DNA from: Marsupella aquatica
Taxonomy: Eukaryota > Plantae > Marchantiophyta
Length of the DNA stretch: 64,000 nt
Assembly: GCA_973895155.1 (NCBI GenBank)
Contig: OZ316894.1
Coordinates: 1,278,953-1,342,952 of the forward strand
Direction: 5' to 3'
The stretch's first letter is position 1. Each line of letters starts with the position of its first letter. Below the pieces are notes generated by a model. It was not told where the DNA came from. It searched no databases and saw only the letters and a program-made list of their open reading frames with translations. Below are positions 2,601-52,735 of this stretch, piece by piece. The position numbers and the translations under genes were made by a program.

Positions 2601-3698
2601 CATAAGAAGGAATATGCGACAAATAGAGGGATATACTTAGTGGACCTCCAAATGCAACTTTCTCTCTTAATGGACCAAAAGTTTCCCACGCCCTCCCAGT
2701 GGACCTCTGGGCCCACCAGAGGTACCATTTTGTGTGATATGTTCTTCTAACACATTGTGCAGTTCTTATAATGCGAGATTGTCACTGTAAAACGCAGCAT
2801 GTTCTATTGTTCTTCAGTGTCTGACCGCGTCGCCGAATGCGGTCGACTACGATCGCAGTTTTGAGTGAATCAATGTATCCTGCAATGTAGACATTGACAA
2901 CAATGCGTACAAACATTAACCATGATGTCAAACAAACCTTATGTTGTGCGGCCGCATAATGAAATAGAGCCTCATAGTTAGATCATGTATACATTGACAT
3001 CACTGTATAAATGACCACAATGTTGGATGAACCAAGCATAGTGCAACCACAACATATACAAAGCAGTGTAGACATTTACAGCCATGTATAAAAAATGTAT
3101 TAGATTATATATAGTTAAACAAATTAGGGTTTGGAGTAACCGTTCGCTTAGGCGCGGAAAAGCTAAACATGCTTATATCTTCAATAGAATACAGGGTGGA
3201 TAATGTTTTCAGAGGATGACCCGCCAAATCACTGACATGTTACAGAACTTTTGCACGTTCTTGTCATTTCACACGACACTTTTTTTGTGCACATGCTTTG
3301 CGCGTGAGCTCGCACGGCAGGGTCGTGAGTGTTTCCACTCCCCTAATGTGTACAGTACGCTTAGAGGGACAGTGTCAGGCATGGAGGACAATGACTCAAT
3401 GCATTTGTGGACCAGAGGTGATGTTTGGGAAGTCAATGTCCCCTATCATGAGAGGGCACGAACGTAAGACACACAAGAACGTCAGAGGGCTCGAAAGAAT
3501 GTTGAGAACCCCCCGAGGATATTGGATGGCAGAACTGCTGAAGAAGGTGCCATCAGATTGTTTGGACATTTCTTATTTTCATACAATGTGTGTCAATCCA
3601 ATGTGATTTGAAAGTATGACACCGTTTGAGTTCCCATCCAGGCATGTAGCTTCCGCACATGAACATTGATGTCATTGTATACATATTAACGTGATGAC

Positions 3699-6600
3699 AT
3701 GTCTTCCTCTGTTACAGTGGCAGCAGAGGCTGCTCGAATCAAGTTGGGAGAGCACTTCAATAGCTTTGAAGAGTTTGATCGGTGCCTAGATTCTCTGGCT
3801 GTGATGAATGGTCGAGCCATGTCCAGATACAAGACGTTTGCAAATCGATGTATTCGTGTATGCAGGTTTGGAAAGATTGCTAGATCGAAATAGGTAGTCG
3901 ATGATGAGGCAGCTTGTGATGACCATGGTGACAATGACAGCATTGGTTCACATGCTACGGAGGAACCAAACCAGTGGCAGCTTCAATTTGAGGAAGAGGA
4001 TGAAGAGTCAGAAGGTGAGCATGAGTTTCATAGCAGATATGGCCATTGGAGTGGAAGACGATCGAAAGGACCAAGGTCTCAGACATTGCAGCAAACTACA
4101 CAACAAGAGAATAGATATCGCAGTCAAGCAGAGGTGTGTGCTACCGCTGCTACTGCCACCAATGCCACACCTTTTTTTATTTTGGGACATCCTACAATCA
4201 CTTGCTCAAGTTCTTGGTGTGTACAATCATGGGGTTTTGCAGATTGAAGATCGTCAATTTCATAATGCCATTAATCAGATCACTCTTGCTCGTCAGCAAC
4301 CTCGTGCACCGCTTTCAGCCATTCAAGCAAACACCATGCAGACAAATGTGTCATTGTCTACACAACAATCCGTGCACCAAAATGCACCTATATCTGTACA
4401 ACAAACTGTGCACATAAATACTGTTTTGTCTACACAAGGAAGAGTTGTGCACAACAGACCAAAGTCCATAGTCCAACACACTAGCGTTTGGTTACCTGGT
4501 TTGCAACACCCACATAAACCTGGTCAACAGAAAACTAGGAAGCCATCTGCAACTGGAGCTTGTGGACAATTGTCCAGATCTAAGTCCTCTCAACCAGGAC
4601 CAGAAGACTTGCTTTACTTAGAGGAGGAATGTCCTTTTAGAGTACGTTGCAATAGAGTGAAGGGTGGGGGTCATATTATCACTATATGTGAACTAACACA
4701 TACTTGTGCTGCTCACATTCACAAGTGGTGAGCTCCTACTCACAAGTCTGCATGGTTGGGGGTAACATTGGCTCCAAGAATCATCAGAAATCTGAAAATG
4801 CCTGTGAAGGAATTGCTGTCTGGTTTCCAAGGTGACTACAAGCAAGGAAGTAACTACCAGCAAATGTGGCGGGGCAAAGATCTTGTAGGGCATTGGACCG
4901 CAGGCTCACAGAAATCATCTTTTCAGATGATCCCAACATTGATTGATAGGATTCGAGAGACAGACCCTGGCTGTGTTGCACATTGGTGCACTATGGAGGA
5001 CTCCACCATTTTTTGCAGAGCATTCATATGTCCATCTGCCACCAGGAAAGCACTTAACTATACTCAGCCGATGGTTAGTTTAGATGCTTGTCACACCAAG
5101 AATAGAATATCCAACTCAACTATTTTTAGCTACATGCCTGGATGGGAACTCAAACGGTGTCATACTTTGCTATGGAGTAGCACCAGTTGAAAACACAGAG
5201 AACTGGCTTTGGTTTCTTGAATTAATGGACAGAGCTGTATATGGCATTGGTAGTCAAGACATTGTCATCATGTCAGATTGGCAAAAGGGTCTCACTGCTG
5301 CTGTAAGTCAGATTTGGCCAGGTAACACCCTTCCACGCTTAGATTGCTTAATTCTGTCAAATTTGAGAGTTATGATGATACTATGCTAACTGGAGTACAA
5401 AATTTAATTTATTATTTTTGGACAGTAGGAAAGATCCATGCACAGTGCGCAAATCATTTGAGGGCAAACGTGAAGACCAGGCATGGTAGAACAGCAAGTG
5501 AATTCTTCTACGGATGTGTCTATGCCAATGATGTGCACCAGTAAGTAAATACACTCACTAGGACCAATATGAAAGCAATTTGCCTATTCAGACATTGTGC
5601 TTGATGTATTCTATATATTTTGACATTGTGCTTGATGTATTCTGTCTCTGTAAACATTGTCACTCATGTATTCTGTCTCTTTCAATTCAGATATGAGTCT
5701 GTGCTACATCGACTGTCTGGTTCATTGATAGCCGGCAAGGGAGTTGATGCAGCACATTACATCCGCGGTCTGGATGTGAAATGTTATGCCAGGCATGCAT
5801 TCCCCCTCCCTCGCGTGGGTAAGGTCACAGGTAATCCAGCCGAGCAAGCAAATTCTGGATTATTACCATTCCGTCTCCTAGCACCTGGAAAGTTGTTGGT
5901 GGCTCTTTGGGTGCACATTCAACAAAAGTTTAAAGACAGGAGAATAGAGGTTGCATGCAGACAAGAACCACTGTCAAAACCAGCACAACTACGATACAAT
6001 ACCAACTTGCAGAACTTCCAACAATTCCAGGTGCAAATTGGCTCTTTCTTTTCCTTTTGTAACGAACATTTTCACCACATGTGGAGGATGGATTGTCTCA
6101 CGCTTCATATTTCATACTGTCATGCTACAGGTATTCAGTGATGGTCAATCCAGTGCCAAAATTCAGACTACAACAGGGAGTGAGGAGATCTTCTCACTTT
6201 GTCACCAAAACCAAAGTGCACTTGCATGGAGCTGCAGGAGATGGTTTGGCCATGCCAACATATGTTGGCATGGGATGATGAAACAGGAAAGAATCCGGCT
6301 AGGCATTTTCATAAATGCTGGCGGACACAGTCTTTGGTTTTACTTTATGATGGTGTATTACCTAGCTTTGTTTCCACTCACCTTCCATTGAGCTTAAGTT
6401 GTCATGCTCCAGAGCTTGCTATAGTGAATGGGCGACATAGAATGGTAAGAATTCATGGGGAAACTTGTTCCAGGGCTTTAGGGAATGGGGAGGACCTCCA
6501 TCTTGATCCAACAGGAAGGCTGTGTCTCAGATATCCAATGGATGATGACAATGAGAGAGGCATTCTGTTTCCAAGTGCAAACTCTGCGAGTGGCCTCCAA

Positions 6601-7056
6601 TGGTTGAGATCCTACCTAAGAAAAGGAAGCGGGGTAATGTAAAGTGTACGTGCAGCAGGTGCGGAAAAGGTGGCCACAACAAACGATCTTGCAAAGAAGT
6701 TTTAGTTGCCCAAACAACTGAAGATGATGAACAGGTACAAAATGTTATAATGTTGCAAGACAGAGAAGGTCCATATAAAAGTCCTAGTTTCATAAGAATT
6801 TGTTTACTTATTCTAGTGTTATTGTAATGCGCAGGTGGAGGGGGAAGAGCATGACAATGTGAACAATGCTGGAGAAAGTGAGTGGCTTGTCACCGTTGGA
6901 GCACCAACAATAGGCAGTGGTACTATGCCTTCCAATCCACGCATTCAAAACTCCTTGGATTATGAGTGGGCACGGCGCATCACTGAACTTGCTGAAGAAG
7001 CTGCTGATAATTGCCCTTATTTTGGGCTACCTCATGAAGTAGATATCACAGAATAG
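3699..7056 (+). pseudogene. MuDR/MULE transposase pseudogene (MULE DDE domain, SWIM finger, zinc knuckle), intron-containing
   Basis: Motifs SLDACHT, YGVAPVENTENWLWFL, IMSDWQKGL, CANHLRANV and NPAEQANS; SWIM CTC...WPCQH; CCHC knuckle CSRCGKGGHNKRSC. Disabled by in-frame stops (TAG 3891, TGA 4729) and frameshifts near 5105, 6195 and 6590. Confidence 0.9.
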
Positions 7057-7916: not shown

Positions 7917-9188
7917 ACCCACTAGTAGAAACCGGGGCAATTTAGACCATACCTTATAGGACTAAGCCCACTAAGTCCTTTTTCCATACTTGAAACGACT
8001 CGCACCCATTGCACCAGTTTTGTTGAAGACTACAAAAGACTATTAGTGTTTTATGGTTCACTAAAAGACTATGAGAAGTAACCTTGCTACTTTGTGAACG
8101 GTGAATAGTCTAGCACATCATGGGTAATGTTCACTTATGTTGAGGAGGGGTAATTCTGTAAAGAGGGAGATAGCAAGGGGCATAACTCAATAAATGGCCT
8201 TATTTGTGACAAAAAAGGTTTTGGAGTGAGGTTCATGGAGGGTGGACTACGGAGGGATCGATTACTAACTCCATCAATAAAAGGCCAAGATGCACAAAGG
8301 TAGATTTGTACCGGTCTCAAGGGGGTGTGGGTTTAGGGTTAGGGGGTTGTCCAGGCAAAGAACACTCGATTGAAATAGTGACGCAATGGTTTAGGGTAAA
8401 GGAACATGTTTAGGGACCCTAACTTGTTTGCTGCCTTGGGAGGATCTTGAGAGCCTGAGCTTGCAAGCGGCATGCACTCTAAAAATGGCCCTTGGCATTG
8501 CAAAGATAGTCTGGCCACAGTCGAGTTGTGAAGACGTTTAGGGGGTTTATATGTCAAGGCTAGGGGGTGGCTGGGTTTTCACTAAAGGGGGTTTAGGGGG
8601 GTTTGATGTCAAGGGTCGGGGGTTGCATGTTAAGGGGATGGGGGTTTAGGAACCATTGGATCGTTGGCATCATGTCCATTGACATCATGTTCCCCATCAT
8701 GTCCATTGACATCATATATGTCGGGAAAGATAATTGACAAATTATTCATGAGGGTAGGCAATTTGGACAATGTTCAATTGTGTTCAGGAGGGGTAATTGC
8801 ATAAATTAAGAGGGTGATGACAAGGGGCATCACTCATTAAATGGCCTTATTTGTGACCAAAAGAGGTTTGGTTTAATGAAGTTCGATCACCACAGATATT
8901 TGCTAAGGCCAAAGTATTTGTTTAGCGACACTACACTAAGTTGTCACTCACAACACTTGAGTGAATGGAGGGGGTTTATGGAGGGTCAGGATAATCTTGC
9001 CGTTACCATGTCGGCAACACCAGTGACTTTGGTAAGGGTATCCCAAGCTAGGGGCCTGTACCGCTTGCAGTACCGTTTGGACACCCGAGTCGCGCGACCG
9101 TTGGAAGGGAACAAGCCGGTTATGCAACTTTGCTTACACTTAGCAGGTTGTTGATGTGTTTAGGGATCCCGCCACATTCCCAACTTGC

Positions 9189-9320
9189 GGAGCAAGGTTT
9201 ATTGTGTTCTCTTGGTGGGATCGGGAGTTTAGGGATTGGAGCAAGGTTTTATCGTGTTCTCTCGATGGGATTGGGAGCTTAGGGATCGGAGCAAGGTTTT
9301 CCGTGTAATCTTGGTGGGAA
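9189..9320. repeat. About 49-bp tandem repeat (2.5-3 copies) in the CACTA left arm
   Basis: GGAGCAAGGTTTT...GTGTTCTCT...TGGGAT.GGGAG.TTAGGGAT repeated; a partial further copy lies near 9386-9403. Confidence 0.8.
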
Positions 9321-12300
9321 CGTCTCTACAGTGAGGTTTAGTGTTCCCATTTTCTTGTGGTCGGCTCTGTGGAATCCGAGAAGAGGGATCGGGAGTTTAG
9401 GGATGCTGCAATGACCGGCTCTCGAAGGGTGAGGTGAGACAACCTATTCAACGCCCTTTTGCTGCACCCTTAAGCTGTTGAGCTGCCATTGAGCTGGTGA
9501 AGCTGCATGCGGGTTGCATCTGTTCTACGGGCGCACTATCTGCCTGGTTTATGGATTGTGGACTTTGTGGGGAGCGACAATCGGTAACAACGTGAAGGCC
9601 ATCAGAGGCTGGGCAAAGCAGTTTAGGGTGCTGTGGTCGAGGAGGAGCTCACCACAAATTGGGGAGAAGACGCGGGTGACGAGCTGGGGGCGGGGAGGAG
9701 CTGCAGTCAGGGAGGATACAGACCGTCTACAGAACGACTGGCAGTCGGAGCGGCGCAGGAGCTTAGAGTGGGCCAACGCCAGCTGAATACAAGCCAGGAG
9801 TTGCATAAGGTGAGAGTCCAAGTTTTGTGTTGCTTTAGTGTTCGAGCAGCGTGCTGCCATTTCAGCCATAGTGCACCGCCTTTGAAGCTCCCATTGTCAG
9901 GGCTGGTAAGACATCACGGCTACATTGCTTTTCTTTGTTGTCCTCTGTCTTTTTGTGGGGACAACCTACTTGATTTGAGCTGCGCAAATTGTCATAAGTT
10001 AAGGCATGCGTCATGCCATCTGGATAGTGTGCCACCGAACTGTGGGAGGATGAGCAACGCGTGGCTGTAAGCAGGTATTCTGTCAGCACAGGCGAGACTT
10101 CATTGTTAAAATCCTATTGCCTGCAATGTGTCTTGTAATGTGTTTTTCCTCATTCAATCAGGAGCTGAGAAGGGTATTGTTAGGCTTCAATTACTCTGTG
10201 TTTTTCTCCAGCTCCATGGTACAGTTTGTGCTTTGTCTGGCGCCCATGCTCCGTCGATCGTAGAGCTAGGTCAACCGAGCTTTGAAGAGGGAGGCTGTGG
10301 GAGCTCCTTACTGTGCTGCAGCTGCTCTTCGATCAACGGTGTAGAGATTGTAGCTACGATCAGTGTTTGCGGAGCTGCCAGCCGGGTGCTTCGATAGTAG
10401 AGAAGAGCAGCCACAGTGATTCAGTCCTTCTCCTACGTGCAACCAAGGACCCCCTGTGCATCGTAAAGTGTGACCTCGGAGCTGAGCTGCGCACTGTCTC
10501 TATTACATGCCTTGTTGTTCTCTATTACATGCCTTGTTCTCCCGTCCACTATTTCCTGTGATTTTCTTTCTTCTAGAAGAGAATGGTGATTTCTTCTTCA
10601 ATCAAACAAAACCCCACCCAACCACCACCCAAGAACGTGGGGTGCGCGCTTCTCAATCCTCCTCAAACTGGCCCCAAGTCTGCTGAAACCCCATATATTA
10701 CCCACCGGCACCAAGGGTCCAGTCCCAACCCGTCTTCCGCTTGCCACCCTCCTCACTCTCTCGCGCATCTATCTCCCGATATTTCACGCACAGCCGAGCC
10801 CACCAAAAGCTCTCTCCCTACAATCCCTCCTAAATCAACTTTCTCGTTTCCTGTTGCTGCTGATGTATGTTTGTTCTCCCCTATTTTTGTTTACTGATTG
10901 GTCTCTCCACACTTCCTGCTTGACATTACTGTTTTGCTCCTCCTGGATCCAAACATGCCTTGTGCCCCGTGCTCCAACCTGCATCCTTTTCTTTACTGAG
11001 GGGGGGACCACAGCCTCCAGCCATACCTTGTGGCAGGCCTGGTCAAGACGGTGGTCGGTAGCTCGTTTTTGCTTTTTTCTCTTTTGTTTCCCAAGCTTCT
11101 GGGCGAGGGCATTACCATTCTGGATTCTCCGCGAGGCGCCACTAGCTTTTTTTCTCGGTTGCCCGTGTGCCTGCCTTCTTAGTTTTGTTTTTTCCTCAAG
11201 TGACCGGGCCATCGCTGTATGCAGATTTTTCTTGTTGTATTCATGTACAATATTTTATTGTTCTATCTAGGTTGTGGCAAGCCAACAAACTGTTGACAAC
11301 CAACATGGAATAACAACTATGCAGTGCAATGGCAGAGGACACTGTCCAATATAGGAATGACATGGTTATGTTTTCAATTCCCTGCTTGGATGAGGCGTGG
11401 TGTTGCTTGTAATCATGTATTTCTTCACACTAGAAAAGCAGTCTGTCGGATGAGGTTGTCGGGATTGTTTGTGGGTCAGTCATCTTACGGACACCTAGCA
11501 ACGTCAAATGAATGGTGGAAACGGGCCATGTTGTCATTTTGAAATTTGTCTTTCCTTTTGCCATGCTACCCAATCATTTTGTTAGTCCATGAGTCATAGA
11601 TTCATAGATTCTATGTTTTGTGCTTTGTCTAGAATGCTATGGCGCCCATGCTACAATTTGTGGTTTTTGTCTAAGCACAAATCCTCTCTGTGCCTGGTCT
11701 CTGTGTACCGTCATTTGGATTGATTGTGCAGACGTTTCCTCTTCTCCCAGTCCTTGTCATCCACCAGCCAAAGCACATTGGATTGTTTTCAAAGGAGGGC
11801 TGTGTAGTTCGGAGGGTTTGATCTATGCAGCGGATTTGAGCAGATTGGCGGTTGTTAGTTTCTTCTTGTAAAACCTGTCTGTCTTTTCTGCTTTTGGCCA
11901 TGCTCCTTCACTTGTTGCTGCAAGCTCAATGTGCTTCAGCTATGGCAATATTCACTTACCCTGTCCCAACGGCACTGCCATGAGCTGTAGGACAGCCAAC
12001 AGAAGCAGATTGTATCAATTGCATGTAAGTCAGGGTATTTTATGTATTGCGGAACAACTGTCCAAGTATGCTGCAATGGTCCATCTTGCAGAGCTGAATG
12101 AGCCAATTTCATTTTCCCTGTGCACTTCTATTTCTCAGAGAATTCCCTGGTCATGCTCATTTCCCCCAGAGTTAGAAAACAAAGAAGAAGAGCTGACTAA
12201 TTGTAATTCCAATCCATATCCTGATCGGTCAAGGATTGTTCACTACATTGGCCTTGTCATTGGCCGAGGTCACCAAATTTTGCTTGGTTTCATTCCTGTG

Positions 12301-12725
12301 GAGCACTGCTGTGATGGATTTGTCGTAGCATTCTGCAAACTCTCACGGTTTGCTTATGGCCATTATTTGCAATTTGCTGCTACTAATATGTCTTCTTCTG
12401 AGCAGCATACACCAGAAGTAAGCAATAGTGGAGGTTTAACTGCACATCAACACATCTAGTGAACTACCTCTCTGCTGCTCACTGGAGGGTGAGACTTTCA
12501 CTCTTTCTGGATATTGTAGTTTGTAAGCAAGTTGATTAGGAGTGTTTCATGCTATGTTTACACTGTGACCCCTAGCTGGAACCAATGGAATGACACAGTG
12601 AGTGGGAACTGATAATTTAAGGTTGGTTGCTGTTGGTGAGGCAAGTACAGCTCCTGCTCACCTTGCTGATCGAAGGTGCTTATCAGAGGACGTGAACACA
12701 CGACATCTCCACAAAAGCAACACTT

Positions 12726-13175
12726 ATGGTGAGGACCCGCAACGCTGAACATGTGCGGGTTGCACGCAAGGCAGAGATGTTGCGCCTTGAGTATGTCAGA
12801 CTTGGGATCCTTCCAGCCCAGTCTGCATGGTACTTTGAGTACCCAGTTGTTGCCAGGAACAACTACAGTCGGCCTGTACCTGCTTCTCCACCCTTCCCAA
12901 CATCCTTGGTATTTCTGTCTCTTGTACATGACCCGCCACAAATTAGGGCCCAAGGGTGTGTGCACAGTTGCCAATATGACTGTCCTGCCTGTAGGGCTTC
13001 TGGCCTAGAGTTGGATGACCGTTCTCTTGGATGTCGGTTTTTTCACAGAGCACAATGTATCATCTGGAACCACTCGCCATCCTGCAGTGTGCCTGGCAAT
13101 GTCACTTGTCCTGCCCTCCCAGACCCCACCACCGGTCACTTTGGTGTCTACACATGTTTGGATCACACGCTCTAG
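12726..13175 (+). CDS. Small Cys/His-rich protein, possible degenerate PHD-like zinc finger (CACTA cargo)
   Basis: Intact 149-aa ATG ORF. The C-terminal half has CVHSC..CPAC...GCRFFH...C...YTCLDH, resembling the CxxFYHxxC...YTCPLH spacing of EDM2/NSD fingers. Confidence 0.45.
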   Translation: MVRTRNAEHVRVARKAEMLRLEYVRLGILPAQSAWYFEYPVVARNNYSRPVPASPPFPTSLVFLSLVHDPPQIRAQGCVHSCQYDCPACRASGLELDDRSLGCRFFHRAQCIIWNHSPSCSVPGNVTCPALPDPTTGHFGVYTCLDHTL

Positions 13176-13844
13176 AGGACCACTTGTCACACCGCATGCA
13201 CAAACCAGAGACCATTGACCTATAACTTAACACTTTGACTTGAACAGAGAGGATATTTACTTAAGATTTTGAATTATGACCAATTTTGGGTCCAGGGTTT
13301 AGGGTCAACAGTACATAACTTATCCTATTATGGCTGCACTAAGTACAATATCCTAATTTAAGAGGCTAGCAAGCTCACTTAAAAGTCTCCTTTCAAAGAC
13401 TGGAATTAATGGGCCATGTGATAACCTGGAAAAAGTGATTTATGCCTAACTTATTTGTCTCATTCACTATCATAGCCTATTTAGGATGTATAAATTACAA
13501 CCCTGATCACACTGCTTGATACCAATCCTGTTCAAAAAATGCCTGTTTTACATGTCACGACTGTTATATGTGATTCAAATGCATTAAATCTTGTTGCAGA
13601 TCTCCTTTGGTGAATCATAGCCACAAAATTGAGGTGTAGGTGGAGCTATTGTACGAGGGGATCAGTTTTTAGTGTGGGCTCAACAAACCAAAAAGTATGT
13701 CTACTCTGCACATGTGTGTGAACATTTCATTGCAGTAGCAATTGCCACTCTAGTCTATATGCTACACTGTACTTTTTGTACACTGCACTAAATTGTATTG
13801 TCTGTGCACTCTGCTAAATTGTACTATCTGTCTCATGCGTAGGC

Positions 13845-14525
13845 ATGGCACGCCCTAAAATCCGAGCCAAGAAGCGGGGGACAGAGGTGAGCAACACAGG
13901 TGTAGTTGGGCCAGATGGTAGTAACTTCTCCGCAAGTCAGATTTTCCAGAAGGCAGCTCATTGTTGTGCCATTTGTGACGATGGTGGTGACTTAGCCATA
14001 TGTGAGGGCCCTTGCATGAGGCATTTCCACCTCAACCCGGAGTCTGACCTTGCTGCAGAAAACAACTGTCCAGGGGTGGGCCTCCCGTCAGCACACCAAG
14101 GAGGCTGGATGTGCACTGATTGTTTGGAGAAGCAGGCTAAGTGTGCACAGTGTGGGAAGTTGGGGTCTTATGAGGGCTCTGTTGATGCTCCACCACTTGT
14201 TAGGAAATGCCCTGACAGATATTGTGTGAGGTTCTTTTGTTTTTCATGTTTGCCCGATCTTGCCACAGCTTGCCCACTTCATAAGTGCAAGGCATGTGGT
14301 CAGCACGATGAAGATTTCTGGGTGGACATAGTCCACTGTGTTAGGTGTCCCACCATGTGGCACTTTCATTGTTTGAAGGAGCGTCAAGCAGAAGGCTATG
14401 CTTGTGACAGACACATCTATGATCACTCTGCACATGGTGTTGATCGATGGATCTTCTATTGTCATCGCCATGCCATAGATCCTACTTTGCACACTCCCAT
14501 GAGAGATCACATTTCTTGGCTTTGA
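13845..14525 (+). CDS. Stand-alone EDM2-like composite PHD finger protein (CACTA cargo)
   Basis: Intact 226-aa ORF: CAICDDGGDLAICEGPCMRHFH...WMCTDC...CAQCGKLGS...CPLHKCKAC...CVRCPTMWHFHCL...FYCHRHAIDPTLHTPMRDH. This is colinear with the EDM2 PHD module as I recall it. Basic N-terminus RPKIRAKKR is NLS-like. Confidence 0.85.
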   Translation: MARPKIRAKKRGTEVSNTGVVGPDGSNFSASQIFQKAAHCCAICDDGGDLAICEGPCMRHFHLNPESDLAAENNCPGVGLPSAHQGGWMCTDCLEKQAKCAQCGKLGSYEGSVDAPPLVRKCPDRYCVRFFCFSCLPDLATACPLHKCKACGQHDEDFWVDIVHCVRCPTMWHFHCLKERQAEGYACDRHIYDHSAHGVDRWIFYCHRHAIDPTLHTPMRDHISWL

Positions 14526-15125
14526 ACCTGAATAATGTACATGCATAGTGCACCTGATGTGGATACCTTGGAGATTGCAGACATTCCAATTTTGAGAAGA
14601 AGGACCTCTGTAGGAGAGGATGCTTAGGCAACAAGTACCCTAAGTTCATTACTTGTTCCTGGGTACATGCCTTCAAAATCTCCCCTTAAGCCTTCTAGGA
14701 ACTTTTTTAACTCTGCAATCATTTTGATCACGACTTACATGACACTGCTTAAATTAAATCAGGACTTCTCATTATGAGCATATAAGTTACAAGGCTATTT
14801 AATTTGCGAGAATTCCCTTAAAGTGTACCAACATTTTGTATTCTCATTGAATGTCTGCCCCCATACGAAACATCTGCATGTGGCATCACAAAACAATTGC
14901 ACTTGTCACCTTCAATATTGTGAAGGCACATATTCAAACTATGAAGTGCATGCTTGCAGGTGTCTAGTACGTTTGTCCCAATATTTCTCCCGTTTGGAAT
15001 CGGAGCAGAGACTCACCAGACGACTGGATTGGACCAAGTTATAAACGCAGCATTTTAAGGGCCCTCCGATTATCAGGTGAACGCATTATCTTCCGGTCTG
15101 CAGTGATTAGGTGGCCCGTGTGTAC

Positions 15126-15890
15126 ATGGCCTCTAGGAAACGTACAAATGTTGACCACCCGCCTCTGTTGGCTGGAATCAAAGCCATTTTGATTCCTGGC
15201 CACTATGGGTTCACCCAAGTGAGTTGGCCAATCGTACAAAAACGATTCTCAGAGTTCCATGGGACTGAAGTCAAGGACATCACTCCACAGACTACACATG
15301 TTGTTGCGGGGACATGGCTGGATGTGATGAACAAGTGGTCATGGTCCTTCATTGATTCTGCCATTACCAACCAAGGTCTAAAAGTAGTTGAAGTCTCTTG
15401 GCTGACCGATTCTGTTAAACATAGGTGTGTACAGAGTACTGAGCAATATGAGTTGTGGGAGAGTGAGGAGGCCACTGCAGAGGCTTTGGCTGAAAAGGAA
15501 GCCTATGAAGCAGCGGCAGAGAAACCCAACTTTGCTTCTGTCCAATATGGACCTGTTGTCAACATAGGACACCATCCTATGCGTGCAAATGCTATATTGA
15601 ATGAGCATGGCAAGGAGAGAAATACCATTATGAAGGGGTTCAGTGTGGTATTTGCAGAAGAAGGAATTGGGGAGACTAAGTGCAGACTGTACAAGTCTAT
15701 AGTTGTTGAGCTAGGTGGGACAGTGGAGGAGAGTCTAACAGAAACCTCCACTCATGTTGTAGGTCTGTCATACATGAAAATATGCAGAAAATTCTTTAAG
15801 ACAACAGTGCGTGATTTTGTCATGAACAACAATCTTTGGGTGCTTTCCCCTGATTGGCTTCTGGAATCAGCAGCTAGAGGGAAGCGATAG
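15126..15890 (+). CDS. Tandem-BRCT domain protein (CACTA cargo); stop codon probably premature
   Basis: Two BRCT-like repeats: TTHVVA...VVEVSWLTDS and LGGTVEESLTETSTHVVG...VLSPDWLLES. The TAG at 15888 aligns with a Gln of repeat 1 and the frame stays open to TGA at 15974. Confidence 0.75.
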   Translation: MASRKRTNVDHPPLLAGIKAILIPGHYGFTQVSWPIVQKRFSEFHGTEVKDITPQTTHVVAGTWLDVMNKWSWSFIDSAITNQGLKVVEVSWLTDSVKHRCVQSTEQYELWESEEATAEALAEKEAYEAAAEKPNFASVQYGPVVNIGHHPMRANAILNEHGKERNTIMKGFSVVFAEEGIGETKCRLYKSIVVELGGTVEESLTETSTHVVGLSYMKICRKFFKTTVRDFVMNNNLWVLSPDWLLESAARGKR

Positions 15891-16150
15891 AATGCTTGGG
15901 ACTTTGATATTTTTGAGGCCTGGCCCTCCAAGATTCAGCGGAGATGTATGCTTAGCAAAGGTGGGAGAGAGTGAGGAGTAGGAGTCCCTCATATTTTTGT
16001 ATAAATCACAATTTTGTAATAAATGTGATCCTTGAACTAACTCATCTTGTCATGGTTGGTCGCAGTTGAAGTGATTGTTGTTTCCTGCTGCGTGGGGTGT
16101 GACTGTGAATCTACTTGCTGGGCTCTGTTTGGCTGAAGACTTTGGTGGGT

Positions 16151-16684
16151 ATGCTGCCTCTTCCAGACCGTCAGGCCCTGTGTAGGGTCCTCCTACGGGT
16201 TGCATCGTGCATGGCTACTGCTTGGGCTTACTTGTGTGGATTGGTAACCAGACAGAGTGTAGCTCCATCCGAGATAATGCCTGCAGACCTTGGATGTGTT
16301 GTGAATGCTGTGGTGAATGAGGATGCACAGTCGGAAGAGGACATTTACTTTTCAGCAGATGAGTTAGACAAGCACGATGCTGTAGGTGGTTCCTTGTTGC
16401 CTGATTTGGCAGATGATATAGTTCTTACACATGTCTGGCCGAGGGTTCTTGTGGTGTCTGGCGCACAAGATATCTGCAAATATAGACTAATTAGTACCCA
16501 GTGGAGGGACTTGGTAGCAACATGTGCACCATGGAGGGCACTGCTGCCACTGCTTGTAGGCACGGATCGAAGACCACCATGGCATGAGCAGGGTTTAGAC
16601 CTTGATGACTTAATGTACATGCCTGAGTACCTCAGGGCTGAGTGGCATCGACAACAAGATTGGTATCCGTATTTGATGTGGTAG
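16151..16684 (+). CDS. F-box-like small protein (CACTA cargo)
   Basis: SLLPDLADDIVLTHVWPRV...CKYRLISTQWRDLV fits the F-box pattern LLPxLPDD...R(x)VxxxWRxLV. The start codon is uncertain (16151, 16211 or 16277). Confidence 0.6.
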   Translation: MLPLPDRQALCRVLLRVASCMATAWAYLCGLVTRQSVAPSEIMPADLGCVVNAVVNEDAQSEEDIYFSADELDKHDAVGGSLLPDLADDIVLTHVWPRVLVVSGAQDICKYRLISTQWRDLVATCAPWRALLPLLVGTDRRPPWHEQGLDLDDLMYMPEYLRAEWHRQQDWYPYLMW

Positions 16685-17010
16685 TAAGATGAGGACATCT
16701 CACACCGGTCTCGCACCTGGCACCTGTGTCTATGACTATACATGATTGGACTCTGATATGGTCATGGATGTACGTGCAGAGGCAGTACATGTGAGGACAG
16801 CGGAGGAGTTGACATCCTCAAACATTTAGGAATTTTGTCTCATTCACTTGAGAATAGGTACATGACTCAGGCACCTATATTTTTTGTTTTTTTGTTTTTT
16901 TGGAACGTTACGTATTTTGGCAAGTACAGTCGGGGGTGAAATCCTTAACAGGAAGTGTATTTTTCACTTGCATAATAAAATGACAGGGTGCTGAGTGCGT
17001 GTGTATAGTG

Positions 17011-20000
17011 ATGGCTCCAAGGTTGCCTCTTCACAACCCATTTAGGATTAGGCATCATGATTCTAAATTGTGGATGCGTGAACAAGCCCGGGCCGCCCAA
17101 GGTAGGAGTAGGAGGATGAGATGCCCATGCACACAGTGCCAAGGATTCAAGTCATTGAGTTTGAACACTGTGCACCTTCACCTGCTGCGGCATGAAAGGC
17201 ACCCTCGGTGGAGGGTTTGGAATGTACCAGCAGAAGAAGACTCCTCTGATGAAGAGTGGAGAGCTGACTTTGTGGATTCTAATACAGCTAGGCGTAGAGA
17301 CTACGTAGAGCAGGACATAGACTGTGCAGAGGATGGTCCTGGGGTCCAACATGAGAACGTGGATGACCAAGATGGAGATGCAGAGGCAGTCACTGAGGAC
17401 GGTGGGATGGATGTCCCAAGAATGGTTCAAGAGATTTTTGAAGACCTTGATGCTTTTTACGACACAGTGGAATCAGAAGAGGACAATGAACCGCAGCCAC
17501 ACATTGGCGACGGCCAAGCTGAACCTGACTTTGACATTGGGGAAGGTGCAGCAGAGAGGGAGTGGGTGTTTGGGGGCCCAAAACACATCAAAGAAGCTTG
17601 CATTCCTATCTACGAGGGGTCGAACTGCTCCAAGCTGGGTTTTGTCGTGTTGTTGTTGAACATCTGTGGCAATCACAATGTTCCCAATATATTTGTGACA
17701 GAGTTGTTGACCTTCCTGCGCCGAAATGTGTTACCAGATGGTAATTCAATTCCAAAAAATATGTACGAGGCTAGGAAATTGATGTCTAACCTTGGGCTGA
17801 ACTATGTGTCTATTGACGCATGCCCTGATGGGTGTGTTCTCTTTCGCAAAGAGCATGCAGATAAATTGACATGCCCTCATTGTGGTAAGCACAGGTACAA
17901 GAATGTAGGGAAATGTACACACCCTGCCAAGGTTCTTCGTCATTTTCCTCTCATTCCTAGACTACAACGTCTGTTTAGATGCCCTGCCATTTCCAAGCTG
18001 ATGACATGGACTCCTGATAACAAGAGCAGTGATGGCCTGCAGCGTCACATTGGAGATTCCAACCATTGGAAATTTGTTGATGAGAGGTGGCCACAGTTTG
18101 CTGCAGAGAAGCGGAACTTTCGATTTGGTCTATCACTGGATGGAGTAAACCCATTTGGAGACAAAAACAACCGTTATTCATGTTGGCCGGTTACGCTGCT
18201 AAATTACAACCTTCCCCCATGGATGACTACAAAGAGGTTTTTTGTCATGATGGTGCTGTTAATCCCTGGACCAGCTTCTGTGACCGAGCAATTCATAGAT
18301 ATCATGTTGGCTCCAGCAGTGGAAGAGTGGAAGACTTTGTGGATAGAAGGTGTGTTAACCCATGATGTTCTGAAGGGGCTTCTTCGACCCAGCCCCTTTA
18401 GACTGCATGCAATTTGTTTGCTGGATATAGCAGATTACCCAGGCCATGGCATCATATCTGGACGAGTGACAAAGGGCTATGTGGGGTGCACACCATGTGG
18501 GAAAAATGTGACAAGTGAGTGGTCGCATGCCCTACACAGTATGAAATTTCAGGGGCATAGAAGGTATCTGCCTGTTGATCATCCTTACAGGCACACACGG
18601 TCTCAAATTGCACACTTCAACAACAAAACAGAGCTTCGTGGCCCACCACAGAGGGTCACCAGAGAGCAAGTCCTGAGGTGGGCAGCCAGGAAGGCTGATT
18701 GGGACAAGAGAAGTGCCACTGATCGAGAACCTGAGGATCCAGTGGTGAAACACGGTGTGAAAAGACAGACCTTGATGGACTTGGAGTTGGAGTACTGGAG
18801 GGTAATGTACTTAGCCTCCAGCCCCTGTATGATTGCAATTTTAGATTGGAGCAATGGTGGATTGATGTTGGTTACAATCCTCCTATGTGGTTAATTAGTG
18901 TTTCTGTTGTTGAATTCTTTGCTTTGTGGAGTGCAGGAATTCGAGCCCAGCAAACACAATGTGGACGTCATGCACATTGAGAAAAATATTTGTGAGAGCT
19001 TGCTGAAGTTCTTGTCGGGTGAGAAAGATACAGGAGCAGTTCGAGCTGATATGCAACAGAAGGGGATTCGCCCTCACCTTTGGTTGAAGCCCCATGCAAG
19101 CAATCCCAATGTACTTCTCAAGTTCCAAGCTCCCTATGTGTGCACACAGGATGAATGGAAGACATTCTTGTATAGATTGAGCTGTCTGAAAGTGCCCTCT
19201 GGCTATGCTGGTGCCTTCAAGAAGCATATTACAAAGAATAAACTTGGCAGTATGAAAACACATGACTACCATGTGTTGATGCAGCACATTCTGCCCCTAT
19301 GCCTCAGAGGTCTCATGCAGAAACCAGTCCGTAATGTCATTCTTCGACTGTGCAATGTATTTCGCCGTATATGTGTGAAAGTGTGGGATCCCCAAGGATT
19401 GGAGCAGTTGAAGCAGGATGCTGCTTATGTCCTCTGTGACTTGGAGATATACTTCCCCCCTGCTTTCTTTGATGTTATGACTCATCTCCTAATCCATGTG
19501 GTAGAAGAGCTAGGGCAGTATGGGCCAGTCAGTACCAGATGGATGTACCCTATGGAGCGATACATGAAGTTGTTGAAAGGTCATGTGAGAACATACTACA
19601 GGCCAGAGGCTTCCATGGCATTGGGGTACATTAAGGATGAGACGTTGGGATTCCTAACAGAGTACATGGCTGGGTCTGGTGAAGCTATGACAAGAGTTTG
19701 GAAATCTGGTGAAGATGATGGAGTGAGTGGCGAGGTTGTTGAAGGTGTGGGACGTGCTGTTCAGCTGCCTGTTGCGATTCGAGACAAGGCTCATTCATAT
19801 GTGCTGGCAAACACAGAGCCTATGCAACCATGGTGGAGGTGAGTGATTGAATTGACTTGCCTTTGTTGTGATGCTTCTTGTCTGTTCCAAGGGTGATCTT
19901 AGGTTGTCATGTGTTGTTTAGACCTAACTATGCCTGTACCTCATATTGCAGGGAATATGATATGCAAAAAGCTGCACACTCTGGGCAGCAGGATCCCTTC

Positions 20001-20711
20001 CCACAGTTCGAGCAGTGGATTCGGGTGACAATTCGAGAGCATAGTAGACATCACCCAGATATGGAGAAGGATTTGTATCTTCTATCTGTGCCACCACGAT
20101 TGTCTATTCTGACCTACAAACGGATGAGAGCTTATGGAAATCATTATCGAGTGAGGGATGAGCAGGGTGACCATTGTGTATCATATGATTGTGGTTTGAT
20201 TTCTGTGTTTGAGCAGAGAACCTCTGAAGAACAGAGGGGGTGGATGAAGATGGGTTACGTGGGGGAGTTGACCGACATTTGGGTGTTGAATTATGGTAAC
20301 ACAAGTGTCCCAGTGATATTGATGAAGGGATCATGGGTGAAATCAGAGTGGCAGAGACCAAGGGCCACCATGAAGCGTGATCATGATGGGTTCTTGTTGG
20401 CCAATTTTAGGTCCAGAGTACCAGAATGGTCTGAGCCTTTTGTTTTCCCTAGCCAAGTTGAACAGGCTTTCTTTGCAGATGTGGAGGAGTCACATGGCTG
20501 GAGGGTGGTATGCCATAGCCAAGCACGGAACAGGCGGATGGATGGAAGTAAAGTAGAGTTCAGTTTGGATGACCATGCTGCATTCGAGCATCCTAGTCAT
20601 GAGACTGTACTTCCAACTCGGGCAGGGACTGACTACATCCCCTTAACATTGAGAGAGACATATGATGAACCTGGGCAAATGGAATATGATGAGGTTGATG
20701 ATTTGCAATAG
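17011..20711 (+). CDS. CACTA transposase (TnpD/Tnp2-like); exons about 17011-18801, 18937-19838, 19952-20711
   Basis: N-terminal CPCxxC domain, IDACPDGC, CPHC, LRHFPLIPRLQRLF, LDGVNPF, DYPG, DVMHIEKN, MKTHDYH, WMYPMER and EPFVFPSQVEQAFF. GT-AG introns keep the frame; no internal stop seen. Confidence 0.95.
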
Positions 20712-20888
20712 GCAACAGCTGGCGATTGGCAAGTATGAGGTTGAGGATGACTACCTGCACAGAGTCACAGAACGGGAATTGCTGCCTGGAATGATGTTTA
20801 GGATAGTTGGATATGCATGAAATTGATTGATACTTTGAATTTAGTGTGCTGATTCTCCCTGTTTGGTTGTGGGTGCTGTGCAGAAGCT

Positions 20889-23800
20889 ATGGGGGAAGAG
20901 GGTGATGACATGGAGACAGACATGGGGCTTGGAGAGTGGGGTGAAGAGGAAAGATTGGATATGGATGGAGACCCAGATGCAGGGGGCTCACAGAAAAATG
21001 CACCTGTGCAGGATGCACAGGGCCCTCATCAAGTCCCAGGTAGGTGGGCAGCTAGAGAGAAATCACATAATCCATACCCTAGAAGGAGCCAGAGTTATTG
21101 GCAAGGGACGCCTGATAATTATGATGATGACTATGATGGAGCAGAAGATGGATGGGATGAATATGAACACCCAGAGCGTGGTAGAGACGGGTACAGAGGG
21201 CAATGGACAGGTGAGGAGGATGATTGGACAAGTAAGTGCCTTGTGCTAGTGATTTTGTGATGGTAGTAGAGATTTAGCTCAATATGGACTTATCTGATGT
21301 GTAGCTAGGGCAAAGAGTTTATCTTACAGGTCCATGAGTGTGGCATGTACCTGTTGGTATGCAGACTCTGATTGGGACAATCACGAAAACAACAAAGGCC
21401 ATCCACGTTCAGATAGGCGGCAATCATTCACAGGCGGGAGAAACGGCCCTAATTCATCAAGACAAAGCAATAGGACAGGTGGTCCAGAACCATCTATGCG
21501 CCAAGGGAGAGGTAACTTGGTCATTGCAGAATTGCTCTGAAGTCCAGTGTATATTTGGCAGCAGGATTTATGATTCATACTTACCTAATGTAAGTGACTG
21601 TAAATGGATCCTGTAAATGTGCAGGGACTCCAGGGAGGTTTGGACAATGCAATCCAGGCCGTGGGGGGAGATCAGGCCGTGGAGGGACCCCAGGCCGTGG
21701 GGGGACACCAGGCCGTGGAGGGACACCTAGTAGCGCTTCAGGGAGTACCAAGGCAGGAGACAGTAACAAATTTGGTAAAGTAGAAGTGAATTCCGAAGGT
21801 TGGATAACTCCCACATGTGATGGTAAGAACCGTTGGCATTCTGACCTAAGAGGAGAAGTATTGCGTTGGTTAGATTTGAGCATTACAGAGTTTAGGAGTC
21901 AGAACAAAGCTGATTGGGCTACTATCTGCAAGGACATTCTTGAACGGTGGGACTATGTTGGTAATGATGGTAAGGGCCCAGTTGAAGATTGCATATCAGA
22001 TTATGCAATGAGGATTTTGAAACAAGAGAGGCATAGGTTGAAAAGGATGTGGATAGACAATGGTTCTAACAGGAGAATGCCACCACCCCCATCATTGGAA
22101 CTGGATCAATGGACACGGTTAATCAAAGGGTTCATGTCGGAGGCTGGACAGAGCAAGAGTGAACTGATGTCAAATGCTCGAGGCAAAGTGAAACACCTTT
22201 CACAGGCTGGGAGAGGAAGTTATGCTCCAGTGAAAGAACAATTGGTAAGGCAGTGACATGCCTAATAGTAAGCCTCAAACTTATCATCTTGCTACCATTA
22301 TTACATTTTCATTGACAATCAACACTTGGTTTCATTCATATGTATGTTGATGTGGACTGCAGAAGAAATTGACAGGTGAAGAACCATCAGCACAAGAAGT
22401 GAGAGAGGAGTTCATGAAACAAAGGAGTGAGGTGACAAGTGTGACTTCCAAACAGGTGATTATGTTGTAATTCTATATGTTCTGTGACTATTTGGCCTTG
22501 AGCATCAGAAAGAATTGTAGTAGGAAGTAAGCAACCAGTTCTTGGGGACAATTATCTGAGATATGTAAACTGTGTTATGACAGGGAACTGTTACAACTCT
22601 CACAAAGATGTCTGAACGGTTGAAGTCATTAGAGTGTGGACTCCCTCAAGTGGAAAGTAAATTGGCTGATCATTTGGATATTGTGGAGGCATCTGTAGCG
22701 AACCTTCTTGCATCAGTGGAATCTAATTTCAAGCTTGTGATTGAAAAATTGGGTGGTTCCCAACCAAACAATGAGGGCAACATTGTACAAAGTGTGCCCT
22801 TGTTAACAAAAAAGGGAATTGGCAAATCTGACACAGGTATGCAATGAGGATTTTGAAACAAGAGAGGCCCATTGTTCATTGTGTCCTATGTTCAAATGTT
22901 AGAAGTAAGTTTTCATGAATTGAGTGAATGGTTTGAATGCAGGAAGAGTGGAGGCAGAGAACCTGGACCCTGTAATCGGTAAGCAGAATGGCAAAAAGGT
23001 TGCTGAGACAGGTAACCTGCTATGATCCAGTACATTACATTTGAAAAGTGCATGGAGTTTTGTGAAGCTTAAGCCGGTTGGAGGTAATCTTTTCTGTAAG
23101 AATTGGTTGGATAAACTGGGAATTGAAGTGACATCATGATTGATGTATCAGGTGATTCAAAGAGCAATGAAAAAGATGTGCCCAGTGCCTCAGTGACCAT
23201 AGCCAAGGAGGTATCAGGTAAGCTGATGCTTTAAATTCCTCTCCTACCATTGTTGAGAAACAATTCAGTGGTTAATAGATTGAACCTGAATCTTGTGGTC
23301 TGTTTATTGATCAGCAGAAGCAGACATGGAGGATATGGCAATGGCAAAGAAGGGGAAGAAGGCTGTTCATAATGGTAAGGAGATAGTGACAACTTTGTGG
23401 ATGGTGACATGTACATGGCGCACATGTGATGAGTGATTCACTTATGTTGGACAATGCATTGAATTGTAGTTGATGCAGAGTTGACAGACTCTCAACCAAG
23501 TGGGAGCAGGGTGAAGCGACGTCAAAACTTGGGAGCAACATTGGATGCAAGTAAGATTGTAGATGCTTCAATTGAAGCAAGTACAATGTTAGCAGATACT
23601 GAGATGATGTCGCAGGGAAATCCTGCTACACAATCGGAAGTGTCAAATATGGATGCAGATTCTTTGAAGAAGAGTGTAGCCAATTCTCGATCACCAGCAC
23701 AAAACACTCGTGCCAAAGTCATGACTCGCAACCAAGGTATGAATAATGTCATGTATAAGCCACCCAGGAAAGCCAAGAAAAACAGCCAGGGTAAGGTGGA

Positions 23801-24074
23801 GGTGATAGCCACAGCAGAGCCAGTCCATAATCTTCTATCATGGGAGAATGACTCGCAGGTATGTGTGGGTACAGGCATTTTGCGACCGGATCATGCTAAA
23901 TTCCATGGCAAAGTGGTCCCGGATGACCATGTAGTAGTGTTGTTGACTACAGTGATTGTATCTGATTGTAATTTGCCATTTCCGAATAGAGACGATGATC
24001 CACCTCAAGAAATAATTGCAGATGCAGTAGGATCTCTTGTGCTCTGGCCATCAGAGTGTGTTAGTCTGCAGTGA
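20889..24074 (+). CDS. CACTA ORF2 (TnpA/Ptta-like), multi-exon
   Basis: Several GT-AG-bounded exons after the transposase: acidic N-terminus, RGG repeats, a Ptta-like segment (RLKRMW...PPP...DQWTRLI...SELMSNARGK) and a C-terminal FHGKVVP...LPFP...DAVGSLVLWP motif typical of CACTA ORF2. Exact exon chain not fully resolved. Confidence 0.75.
21655..21728 (+). repeat. 18-bp coding tandem repeat x4 (GRGGTP)
   Basis: CAGGCCGTGG(G/A)GGGAC.C units encode GRGGRS-GRGGTP-GRGGTP-GRGGTP. Confidence 0.9.
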
Positions 24075-24978
24075 CTGAATACAAGTGTAGATAGAATCAT
24101 GTGAATTGTGTTACATTTTGACATTGCCTTGGAAAAATCCAAGAAATATCTGTACCAATTTTTCCATTTGGTAAAGAGGATGAAGGAGCCGTTGTGTGTG
24201 ACATTGATATTTCTGAATTCTGTATGTATGAAACAAGTGATTGATGTCAAACTATGGCTCTATGGTGATTGTCTATGATACTTGAATCTGTTTTGTATCA
24301 ATTCAGTATTAGTGTGTATGGTATAGACGAATGCTTTGTGACCTTCTTTGTAGTCTATGATGTTTGAATCTGTGAATTCATATTAGTGTACATGGTATAG
24401 AAGATGGCTTTCTGAAAATTTGTGTGAGGTTCTAATGTTAACATGGTGAATGGTGACCTTATAGAGTGAGTTCATTCCAAGTACACAATAAAACATGAAT
24501 GAAATGTGTTATTTGTGCACAAGAGTGAGTTCATTCCAAGTAGTATAGTGGGGTCTTCATCACTCATTTCCAGTTGACATGAAAGACTTGTACATACCCC
24601 ACAAAGTGTCTACTTTAGTCGTTTTATAAACCCCCACAAAGTGTCTACTTTAGTCATTTTATAAACCCACAAAGTATATTTAAAGACTACCCTCCATAAC
24701 CTTTTGAGTTGTTCCCAACGACTCACCATCGCAGCCCATAAAAGACTGAAAAAGACTCACCAAAGCTACCCACACAAAGACTAAAATAGACTGAAAATCC
24801 AGTCTATTAAACGACTTATAAACCAGTTCTATAAAGGACTCAGTTGATTATAGTAACAAAACATACGACTCGCAGTCCTATAAAGGACTAGAGTCCTTCC
24901 CAGTCGTTTCCAAGTCCTATACGGTATTGAATAGTCGTTTAATGGGGTCTAAATACCCCCCGGTTTCTACTAGTGACC

Positions 24979-52106: not shown

Positions 52107-52735
52107 TGCGCATATTGATATCGATAATGGAGCCTAGAGCAATTGGCACCGAGCTAGGCTGGGACGAAGGGGTGCGTGACGAATTTTGTAGGACTCAGCT
52201 TCACTCGGGATCGCTGAAGCTCGGCTGGCCGTTGTGGAAATACTCACAATAGGCGTGGTGACGGTCCAGCTCGAGGATGAAGAACGGGTAACGAATGAAG
52301 AGACTGGCATGTCGGCTGCATGCAAAGAGGAGTAGTCCGTTTGGTGGTCTGAAGAGTGCATAATGGTCCCACGAGAACCGGGCACATGACGCGCGAGATT
52401 GACACAGCGTAGTTAGTTATACTTCCCAGTGTCTGATCTGGGCCTGCTAAGATTGTGCGTCTCCTACTGAATTTATTAGGATTGAATTGTTAAAACACAA
52501 GTAGGTCCGTTGCTAAAAGGCTCCTATGGGGAACGCTAGGCAGATGCTACTCCGTTGACGCTGCCACAGAGACTTACGTACGTTGGGTGCTACGTAGAGT
52601 TTCAACTGCACGGTGCTTTTGGGACTCCTTCGAAGGTGGGCTGCTAAATCAGCCGACACACAGGTGGTGAAATTAAAAGGCTACCAGACTGGTACTTCTA
52701 CGTTGAGGCCTCTGCACGCAGTCAGGTCAGCTGAG

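Follow-up and report, generated by a model that had tools for sequence, protein, structure and literature searches.

A CACTA transposon in the liverwort Marsupella aquatica with an intact transposase and an apparently selected four-gene accessory cassette

Results

A multi-copy CACTA element with four genes upstream of its transposase

Analyses of a 64,000-nucleotide stretch of the genome of the liverwort Marsupella aquatica (GenBank assembly GCA_973895155.1, contig OZ316894.1, positions 1,278,953 to 1,342,952 of the forward strand; hereafter the window) identified a CACTA element of 17,056 bp at window positions 7920-24975 (Table 1). The element has the features of CACTA/EnSpm membership, namely terminal inverted repeats (TIRs) beginning CACTA, a 3-bp target-site duplication (TSD) with an empty site, and a Transposase_21 gene. 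The TIR pattern occurred twice in the window, at 7920 on the + strand and at 24963-24975 on the - strand. Splicing of the transposase gene at two GT-AG introns gave a protein of 1,150 residues with no internal stops, in which Pfam matched Transposase_21 (201 bits), DUF4218 (95.6 bits) and DUF4216. The gene that follows is described as TnpA-like from a Transposase_24 match (E 0.002) that lies under the family cut-off.

Four open reading frames (ORF1 to ORF4) are located on the + strand directly upstream of the transposase, and the coding sequence of each is without introns. A preliminary description of this DNA had reported four compact, same-strand ORFs ahead of an intact transposase within TIRs and a TSD, and this arrangement was confirmed (18-bp exact TIR, ACC duplication, stop-free transposase). 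ORF sequence accounts for 64% of the cassette length, and none of 1000 dinucleotide shuffles of the cassette region contained at least four ORFs of at least 149 aa. Another ORF upstream of ORF1 (11929-12459, 176 aa) had no family match and was not counted as a gene. The observed/expected (o/e) CpG ratio of the cassette was 0.31 and that of the transposase 0.32, with values of 0.76 and 0.80 for two host genes in the window; in the element as a whole CG was depleted and CAG/CTG was not. Based on this ratio, which is typical of a transposable element (TE), and on none of ORF1-4 having a second match inside the 64-kb window, the cassette appears to be old cargo.

The element is a multi-copy, recently mobile CACTA with an intact transposase. 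Eleven public sequencing runs were listed, none of them on record as RNA, and nine contained part of the element. The comparison used the assembled contigs of these runs, so that depths are sums over contigs and not copy numbers, and low-depth pieces in runs X6 and X9 (depth 2-7) were disregarded. In each of four runs (organisms A, B, A and C) contigs covered all 30 bins of the whole element, and an empty site, seen as a contig joining 7916 to 24976, was found in two of four (X2 and X3). In this whole-element comparison the cassette was covered in every bin by contigs from runs of three organisms (A, B and C). When the cassette was compared separately, its cover in four runs (organisms A, C, D and E) was 30, 30, 25 and 20 of 30 bins, X1 and X5 being those with 30/30. 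In X6, a more distant run, six of the seven bins with a summed depth above 100 lay within ORF2 or ORF4, which is the pattern expected of a diverged relative that can be aligned in its coding parts only. Run X1 contained long near-identical contigs and, at similar depth, a second variant set with a different BRCT linker, which points to at least two subfamilies carrying the cassette in that run.

Table 1. Positions of the CACTA element's features in the window
Feature	Position	Strand	Basis
Left TSD, ACC	7917..7919		Flank comparison; empty-site joint 7916->24976 in runs X2 and X3
5' TIR beginning CACTA	7920..7937	+	18 bp exact, imperfect out to ~45 bp
5' subterminal short motifs, AAAGACT/ACGACT type	7995..8072	+	Motif scan
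TTTAGGG (telomere-repeat-like) motifs, dispersed array	8332..9628	+	9/21 of the window's copies
GC-richer segment, CpG less depleted (o/e 0.59)	9500..11250	+	Composition
ORF1, 149 aa	12726..13175	+	ORF list, substitution pattern
ORF2, 226-aa stand-alone EDM2-type PHD module (mini-EDM2)	13845..14525	+	Profile and homolog searches, trees
Nine residues after Met of ORF2, histone H3 1-9-like	13848..13874	+	Template scoring
ORF3, two BRCT repeats, variable linker	15126..15974 (family frame, ~282 aa)	+	Pfam, homologs
ORF4, 177 aa	16151..16684	+	ORF list, homologs
TnpD-like transposase	17011..20711	+	Exons 17011-18801, 18937-19838, 19952-20711
Multi-exon TnpA-like gene, exon structure approximate	20889..24074	+	Weak Transposase_24 match
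3' subterminal motifs, AAAGACT/ACGACT type	24582..24940		Motif scan
3' TIR	24958..24975	-	18 bp exact vs 5' TIR
Right TSD, ACC	24976..24978		Flank comparison

Variation among copies of the four ORFs

Substitutions between copies were classified in the best-supported 40 of 401 rows for the cassette and in the 8 cassette rows among the best 40 of 1374 for the whole element; small indels were taken from the best-supported 12 of 34 and 12 of 193 rows. Among these rows there were 27 distinct substitution sites within the ORFs, 13 synonymous and 14 non-synonymous, corresponding to a pooled pN/pS of 0.31-0.39 (p 0.003-0.013, depending on the weighting of transitions). By single ORF, the synonymous excess was significant in ORF1 only (8 synonymous to 6 non-synonymous, p 0.008-0.02; 2:12 in each alternative + frame), and by substitution pattern ORF1 had the strongest coding evidence of the four. 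The transposase had six sites in the same rows, two synonymous and four non-synonymous. The 17 small indels formed 10 clusters, of which a single one fell inside an ORF (p 0.0008); that one was in frame.

Searches for homologs of ORF2, ORF3 and ORF4, which covered near-length proteins, identified full-length stand-alone homologs of each: five for the PHD protein, one cluster of two for the BRCT protein, and three for the F-box-like protein.

ORF2 is a stand-alone EDM2-type PHD protein

The product of ORF2 is an EDM2/NSD-type PHD module with 2.5 atypical PHDs. It matched PHD1-3 of NSD2/3 (E 3e-12) and aligned with EDM2-like proteins, in agreement with its earlier labelling as an EDM2-type PHD. 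In an alignment of six PHD proteins, 24 of 38 Cys/His columns were invariant, compared with 29 of 188 other columns. The RFD was present only in long host proteins, and the 226-aa ORF2 product is the PHD module without either the RFD or the methyltransferase-like (ELP) domain.

With ORF2 as the query, 247 matches were obtained from 1.84 billion representatives, and among the best 150, which were listed, the top seven were short proteins and the rest mainly EDM2-type proteins (the Pfam scan covered 46 of the 150). The five full-length stand-alone homologs were 36-82% identical to ORF2 and had nearly the same start and stop. Approximately 20 short homologs (hereafter minis) were found; many were frameshifted, and wherever PHD2 was intact they shared a deletion of 20 aa and a replacement of His by Cys within it. 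The mini group was defined by length and score prior to tree building, and it was recovered as one group both in a tree made by a quick method from 79 of 140 extracted rows (15 minis, support 100) and in a more careful tree of 29 rows from which the tail and the deleted segment had been omitted (10 minis, 100/100). The mini clade sits on a long stem. The best named host protein, CAM6087769.1 of Calypogeia fissa, was 33% identical to ORF2 in a pairwise alignment and also has its PHD module at the C-terminus; the best-scoring named relatives outside the seed plants came from Calypogeia, Riccia and Marchantia. A single group of the minis and the liverwort proteins with C-terminal PHDs was neither supported nor rejected (p-AU 0.39, with three intended rows dropped from the test).

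All 17 host EDM2/NSD-like rows examined had acidic residues just before PHD1, and the minis had instead a conserved segment of the Q-x-A/S-A/P-H type. As the acidic patch is absent in the minis, reading of H3K9me2 is not to be assumed for them, and their histone specificity may have changed relative to that of host EDM2.

The N-terminal tail of ORF2 is conserved and basic, and it is in register with the first nine residues of histone H3 (A1 R2 x K4 x x A7 K8 K9 in ORF2). The motif used as the template was that of H3 1-9, A1-R2-x-K4-x-x-A7-R/K8-K9. The best H3-like 9-mer was directly after a Met in 9 of 20 minis, and a template score of at least 5 was reached by 9 of 20 minis vs 2 of 136 host matches. 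In 17 rows anchored on R-x-K, position 7 was Ala in 10 and position 9 was Lys in 11. None of 3000 permuted templates fitted the minis as well, and one of 1999 did so when the leading Ala was left out. No PDB chain matched the 22-residue tail. The tail of the minis resembles H3 1-9 statistically, and histone mimicry is predicted only.

A metagenome scan identified nine loci, none of them on a CACTA, with patterns that needed Asp where several minis have Glu and so missed those minis. At eight of the nine loci the product is EDM2 or a short EDM2-like PHD protein (27-46% identity), and the PHD protein of the ninth is unrelated. Short EDM2-like proteins consisting of PHDs only were present on metagenome contigs (L001:679-1431, L003, L004, L005 and L007) and among the representatives (P0034, P0047 and P0083), and three of these separate proteins start M-A-R-x-K. 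P0034 and P0047 grouped with canonical EDM2, apart from the minis, in the quick tree. Judged by sequence, the separate short PHD-only proteins are independent derivatives of EDM2.

BRCT, F-box-like and Cys/His-rich products of ORF3, ORF4 and ORF1

The tandem BRCT assignment proposed for ORF3 held up: Pfam BRCT (PF00533) matched two stretches with 53 bits against a cut-off of 21.3, the two repeats matched one another (E 2e-7), and the matches to ORF3 in Atlas were BRCT proteins. One homolog cluster of two was found (61% identity). The window copy ends at a TAG (15888-15890), before the end of BRCT2, and encodes 254 aa (15126-15890). Both runs covering this site read C at nearly all depth (X1, 5322.1/5322.2; X5, 43.6/43.6) and the homolog P0006 is in frame through the TAG position, which indicates that the family ORF3 runs to 15974 and that the window copy is slightly decayed. 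The best PDB match of ORF3 was DNA ligase 4 (ligase IV; E 0.002). The linker between the repeats is variable and ~55 aa long. A BRCA1-type phosphopeptide pocket has Ser/Thr-Gly and Thr/Ser-x-Lys residues and a short linker; the alignment of ORF3 to BRCA1 was weak (E 0.12), and these pocket residues were not matched in it. Profile, PDB and protein database searches did not find a donor gene for the BRCTs.

The ORF4 product has an N-terminal helix, an acidic stretch, an F-box-like segment (~16394-16540) and a conserved C-terminal tail. Its three homologs were 51-55% identical to it. The segment is consistent with an F-box below the family cut-off: ORF4 scored 13 bits and the homologs 19.3, 17.7 and, for one that is only F-box-like, 14.3, against a cut-off of 20.5, and FBXW11 and FBXL5 matched ORF4 weakly (E 0.6-0.7). 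The AlphaFold models of ORF3 (mean pLDDT 34.4) and ORF4 (40.6) were too poor for a fold search.

The C-terminal half of ORF1 is Cys/His-rich (16 C/H), and profile and homolog searches matched it to no family and no defined Zn-finger profile. We also tried ORF1 as a degenerate EDM2-like PHD, which was rejected (profile probability 0.5%, not significant). The start of ORF1 (12726-12780) is basic and Arg-rich with an A-R-K motif, and its H3 template score of 4 was indistinguishable from chance.

Of the names previously given to these products, the F-box is retained as an F-box-like segment without a score above cut-off, and the Zn finger of ORF1 as a guess from the Cys/His pattern. The statement that each ORF is trimmed to about one module is roughly accurate, except that ORF4 has ~80 residues ahead of its F-box-like part and ORF2 has its basic tail.

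A search of viral contigs found nothing relevant for the mini-PHD, the BRCT protein, the transposase or the TIR, the four TIR-pattern matches sharing only 16-17 bases, and a GTDB scan gave one match, by chance.

Other features of the element and window

The AAAGACT/ACGACT motifs at 7995..8072 are candidate binding sites for the TnpA-like protein. The TTTAGGG array (8332-9628) in the 5' region of the element is on one strand and is possibly a protein-binding array; contig cover was lower there than in the core. The segment at 9500..11250 is a putative promoter and 5' leader, with a donor-like site at 10865. The TnpA-like gene contains a 31-bp exact duplicate (22002-22032 and 22838-22868), and loose contig ends and variants cluster near its second copy; the duplicate may have arisen by a templated insertion private to this copy, or it may be an artefact of the assembly.

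On the outer side of the right TIR there are ~4 tandem copies of a 265-272-bp unit (25396-26427). Fragmented open frames at ~3200-6900, read by eye, resemble a MULE-type transposase with SWIM and zinc-knuckle-like motifs, and a 41-bp perfect inverted repeat (3611/5128) is located within them. A 35-bp repeat forms two arrays in opposite orientation (37750-38680 and 63570-63950), each beside a short hairpin-like end, and these arrays are probably the ends of another mobile element. Two multi-exon genes are also present, which we take to be a host gene for an LMBR1-type membrane protein (42250-47300) and, by resemblance, a receptor-like kinase with a plastocyanin-like extracellular part (52600-57500).

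Discussion

The preliminary description favored retained accessory genes over random Pack-CACTA fragments, and our analyses point in the same direction. The cassette is multi-copy and occurs in contigs of several organisms rather than in one copy only, the pN/pS of the best-supported rows was not near 1, and indels avoid the ORFs. Based on these data, we consider it highly probable that the four ORFs are selected accessory genes. Capture of a block of near-identical adjacent host genes received no support from the window, in which no ORF had a second match, or from the distance of ORF2 to its best named host relative, although this comparison did not extend to the host genome beyond the window.

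Our preferred interpretation, held tentatively with a probability of about 0.42, is that the four upstream ORFs are long-resident accessory genes and that mini-EDM2 counters host chromatin silencing via its PHD module and H3-like tail. The element would have captured its PHD module from an EDM2-like gene in the distant past. The rest of EDM2 (RFD and methyltransferase-like parts) would have been lost, PHD2 would have become shorter, and a basic tail resembling that of H3 would have taken the place of the acidic residues ahead of PHD1. At the chromatin of the element, mini-EDM2 would occupy or divert host readers and writers of the H3 tail, with its own tail serving as a decoy or a self-inhibiting ligand and its PHDs competing with host EDM2. 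The likely task of the F-box-like protein would be to target a host protein, or the transposase, for turnover by SCF. The BRCT protein would probably interact with repair factors when the element excises or inserts, and ORF1 would be a probable metal-binding partner. A PHD-only competitor with an H3-like tail would plausibly shift silencing, in a direction that is not guaranteed. We think it unlikely that the proposal can be extended to a bryophyte CACTA lineage carrying a virus-like operon of host-subverting micro-proteins, in which an H3(1-9) mimic on an EDM2 reader would decoy H3K4/H3K9 readers and writers, the F-box would remove a silencing factor and the BRCT pair would commandeer end joining.

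Loss of EDM2 de-represses Mu1 (PMC3632883), and the PHDs of Arabidopsis EDM2 bind H3K9me2, with EDM2 promoting distal polyadenylation across intragenic heterochromatin (PMC7529245, PMC7472560, PMC10241880). The anti-silencers VANC and TnpA appear to be derived from captured host chromatin regulators (PMC13547354), and Spm elements activated by TnpA keep H3K9 methylation (10.64898/2026.08.24.746577).

A number of observations weigh against an anti-silencing cassette. COPIA4 is more repressed in edm2, so that EDM2 also acts in the opposite way (PMC3632883), and a general decoy acting in trans would benefit every transposon and burden the host, in contrast to VANC with its sequence specificity (PMC10398659). 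The likeness to H3 is a post hoc observation made in related sequences; the motif is not at the start of the close homologs P0002 and P0003, it is internal in one subclade, and it could be a nuclear localisation signal, the obvious rival. The variant tests rest on best-supported rows only, and within these neither ORF2 (3:3, synonymous to non-synonymous) nor ORF4 (2:0) was significant alone, while ORF3 had no synonymous and five non-synonymous changes, three of them, including the stop, private to the window copy. Apart from the private premature stop in the window ORF3, there are disabled copies of ORF3 and ORF4 elsewhere. ORF4 has a 43-nt deletion in X2 and X5 and a 123-nt skip in X1, further skips, possibly filled with other sequence, occur in ORF2 and ORF3, and many mini-EDM2 homologs are frameshifted or truncated. 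The diverged homologs come from short contigs and could be encoded outside transposons.

Some of these defects are what would be expected if the ORFs were passive cargo, that is, Pack-CACTA-like captured fragments riding an active element, with frames left open by the youth of the copies or by past selection in the host. The private stop in ORF3, the ORF4 deletions in other copies and the many broken homologs suit this explanation, and a near-identical host donor could be present beyond the window. We nevertheless regard it as the least probable of the alternatives, given that between copies synonymous changes are in excess and indels avoid the ORFs, that homologs of 36-82% identity retain the start and stop positions, that the minis form a separate clade on a long stem, that ORF2 is 33% identical to its best named host match, and that CpG has been lost as in TEs. 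The same evidence of conservation (selection, copies and the mini clade) would also serve for genes selected for transposition itself. In that case the PHD would direct integration or excision towards a particular kind of chromatin, as the PHD of RAG2 does for a related transposase clade. End-joining factors would be brought in by the BRCT pair, and the F-box would restrict how long the transposase persists. The match of ORF3 to DNA ligase 4 (E 0.002) fits such a role, as do the binding of methylated H3K4 by the PHD of an invertebrate RAG2L transposon (PMC7204232) and the frequent linkage of PHD and chromo readers to TEs across eukaryotes, as fusions to TE proteins (10.1101/2021.11.30.470311). 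Tethering would however not require an H3-like tail, a TnpA-like partner is present in the element already, and the tie between the ORFs and the transposase is conjecture, and we find this explanation doubtful, if conceivable.

Action of mini-EDM2 on the element's own RNA, through read-through or the choice of splice or polyadenylation sites, with one upstream promoter serving six genes via alternative acceptors, seems to us improbable. It would parallel the promotion of distal polyadenylation by EDM2 (PMC7472560, PMC10241880), and an acceptor-like AG is located no more than 90 nt upstream of the ATG of each ORF with no ATG between, that of ORF2 being 2 nt before its ATG. These sites scored 4.2-7.4 on a home-made heuristic for which the median site scored 0.6 and the 90th percentile was 4.6. 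The minis, however, are without the rest of EDM2, where partner contacts may sit, and Arabidopsis Spm genes are often transcribed separately (10.64898/2026.08.24.746577, PMC13547354).

If the anti-silencing interpretation is correct, the proteins pulled down with these products would name host factors that limit transposition. ORF1-4 are small with intronless coding sequences, so each is directly testable in Marchantia, and mini-EDM2 could shed light on what is recognised by the PHD module of EDM2. What is new here is that an autonomous CACTA carries an unusual cassette of four accessory genes that appear to be under selection. Consistent with the earlier claim that no CACTA with this set had been described, full-text searches of the open literature showed neither a CACTA with stand-alone EDM2-type PHD, BRCT and F-box genes nor a transposon-encoded H3 mimic in plants; Repbase, supplements and subscription journals were outside the search, so prior annotation is possible. 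The excerpted text of a survey of viral histone mimics mentions transposons once, in another context (PMC11738798), and PHD, BRCT and F-box were absent from the main text of two 2026 papers on Spm and TE products.

Plant DNA transposons with accessory genes have been described before, VANC and TnpA being examples of such genes, and MuDR elements can have as many as six genes (PMC13547354, PMC10398659, 10.64898/2026.08.24.746577). With En/Spm elements (maize Spm; Arabidopsis SPM2/5/6/9, which have tandem separate genes) the Marsupella element shares CACTA TIRs, a 3-bp TSD, subterminal motifs, and a Transposase_21 gene with a TnpA-like gene behind it in head-to-tail order (PMC13547354); it differs in its four extra compact genes upstream of the transposase. 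Relative to host EDM2-like proteins (CAM6087769.1; Marchantia MPTK1_1g03210 and MPTK1_2g00350), ORF2 has in common the 2.5 atypical PHDs, the C-terminal motif and the zinc ligands, and it differs in being a 226-aa stand-alone protein without an RFD or methyltransferase-like domain, with a PHD2 shorter by 20 aa, the His-to-Cys change, a basic H3-like tail and a separate clade.

Pack-CACTA elements are non-autonomous and without an intact transposase. Their capture of genes has been reviewed, and they likewise carry host-derived domains inside CACTA termini (PMC13317346). The Marsupella element, in contrast, has an intact transposase and its cargo is old, intronless in its coding sequences and diverged from known hosts, with frames kept. 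RAGL elements, with their RAG2L PHD, and the fungal EnSpm/Plavaka elements, some EnSpm-like members of which carry TET genes, are also transposons of the wider CMC/Transib group in which a chromatin reader or modifier is encoded by a gene of its own (PMC7204232, PMC12730594), but there the PHD is of an unrelated type or the product is an enzyme, whereas here there are several small interaction modules and no enzyme.

The VANDAL MULEs with VANC are similar in being multi-gene DNA transposons whose accessory genes apparently come from host chromatin regulators (PMC13547354), and arrays of short motifs in non-coding regions are common to both (PMC10398659). VANC belongs to another superfamily, binds DNA sequence-specifically and is a relative of MAIN, with anti-silencing shown for VANC and predicted here; no MAIN/VANC-like family was among the Pfam matches of ORF1-4. 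The anti-silencers VANC and TnpA are both sequence-specific DNA binders from flowering plants. If our interpretation is correct, the stripped chromatin reader with its H3-like tail, the BRCT pair and the F-box-like protein would instead represent a strategy based on protein interactions, in a lineage that has hardly been examined.

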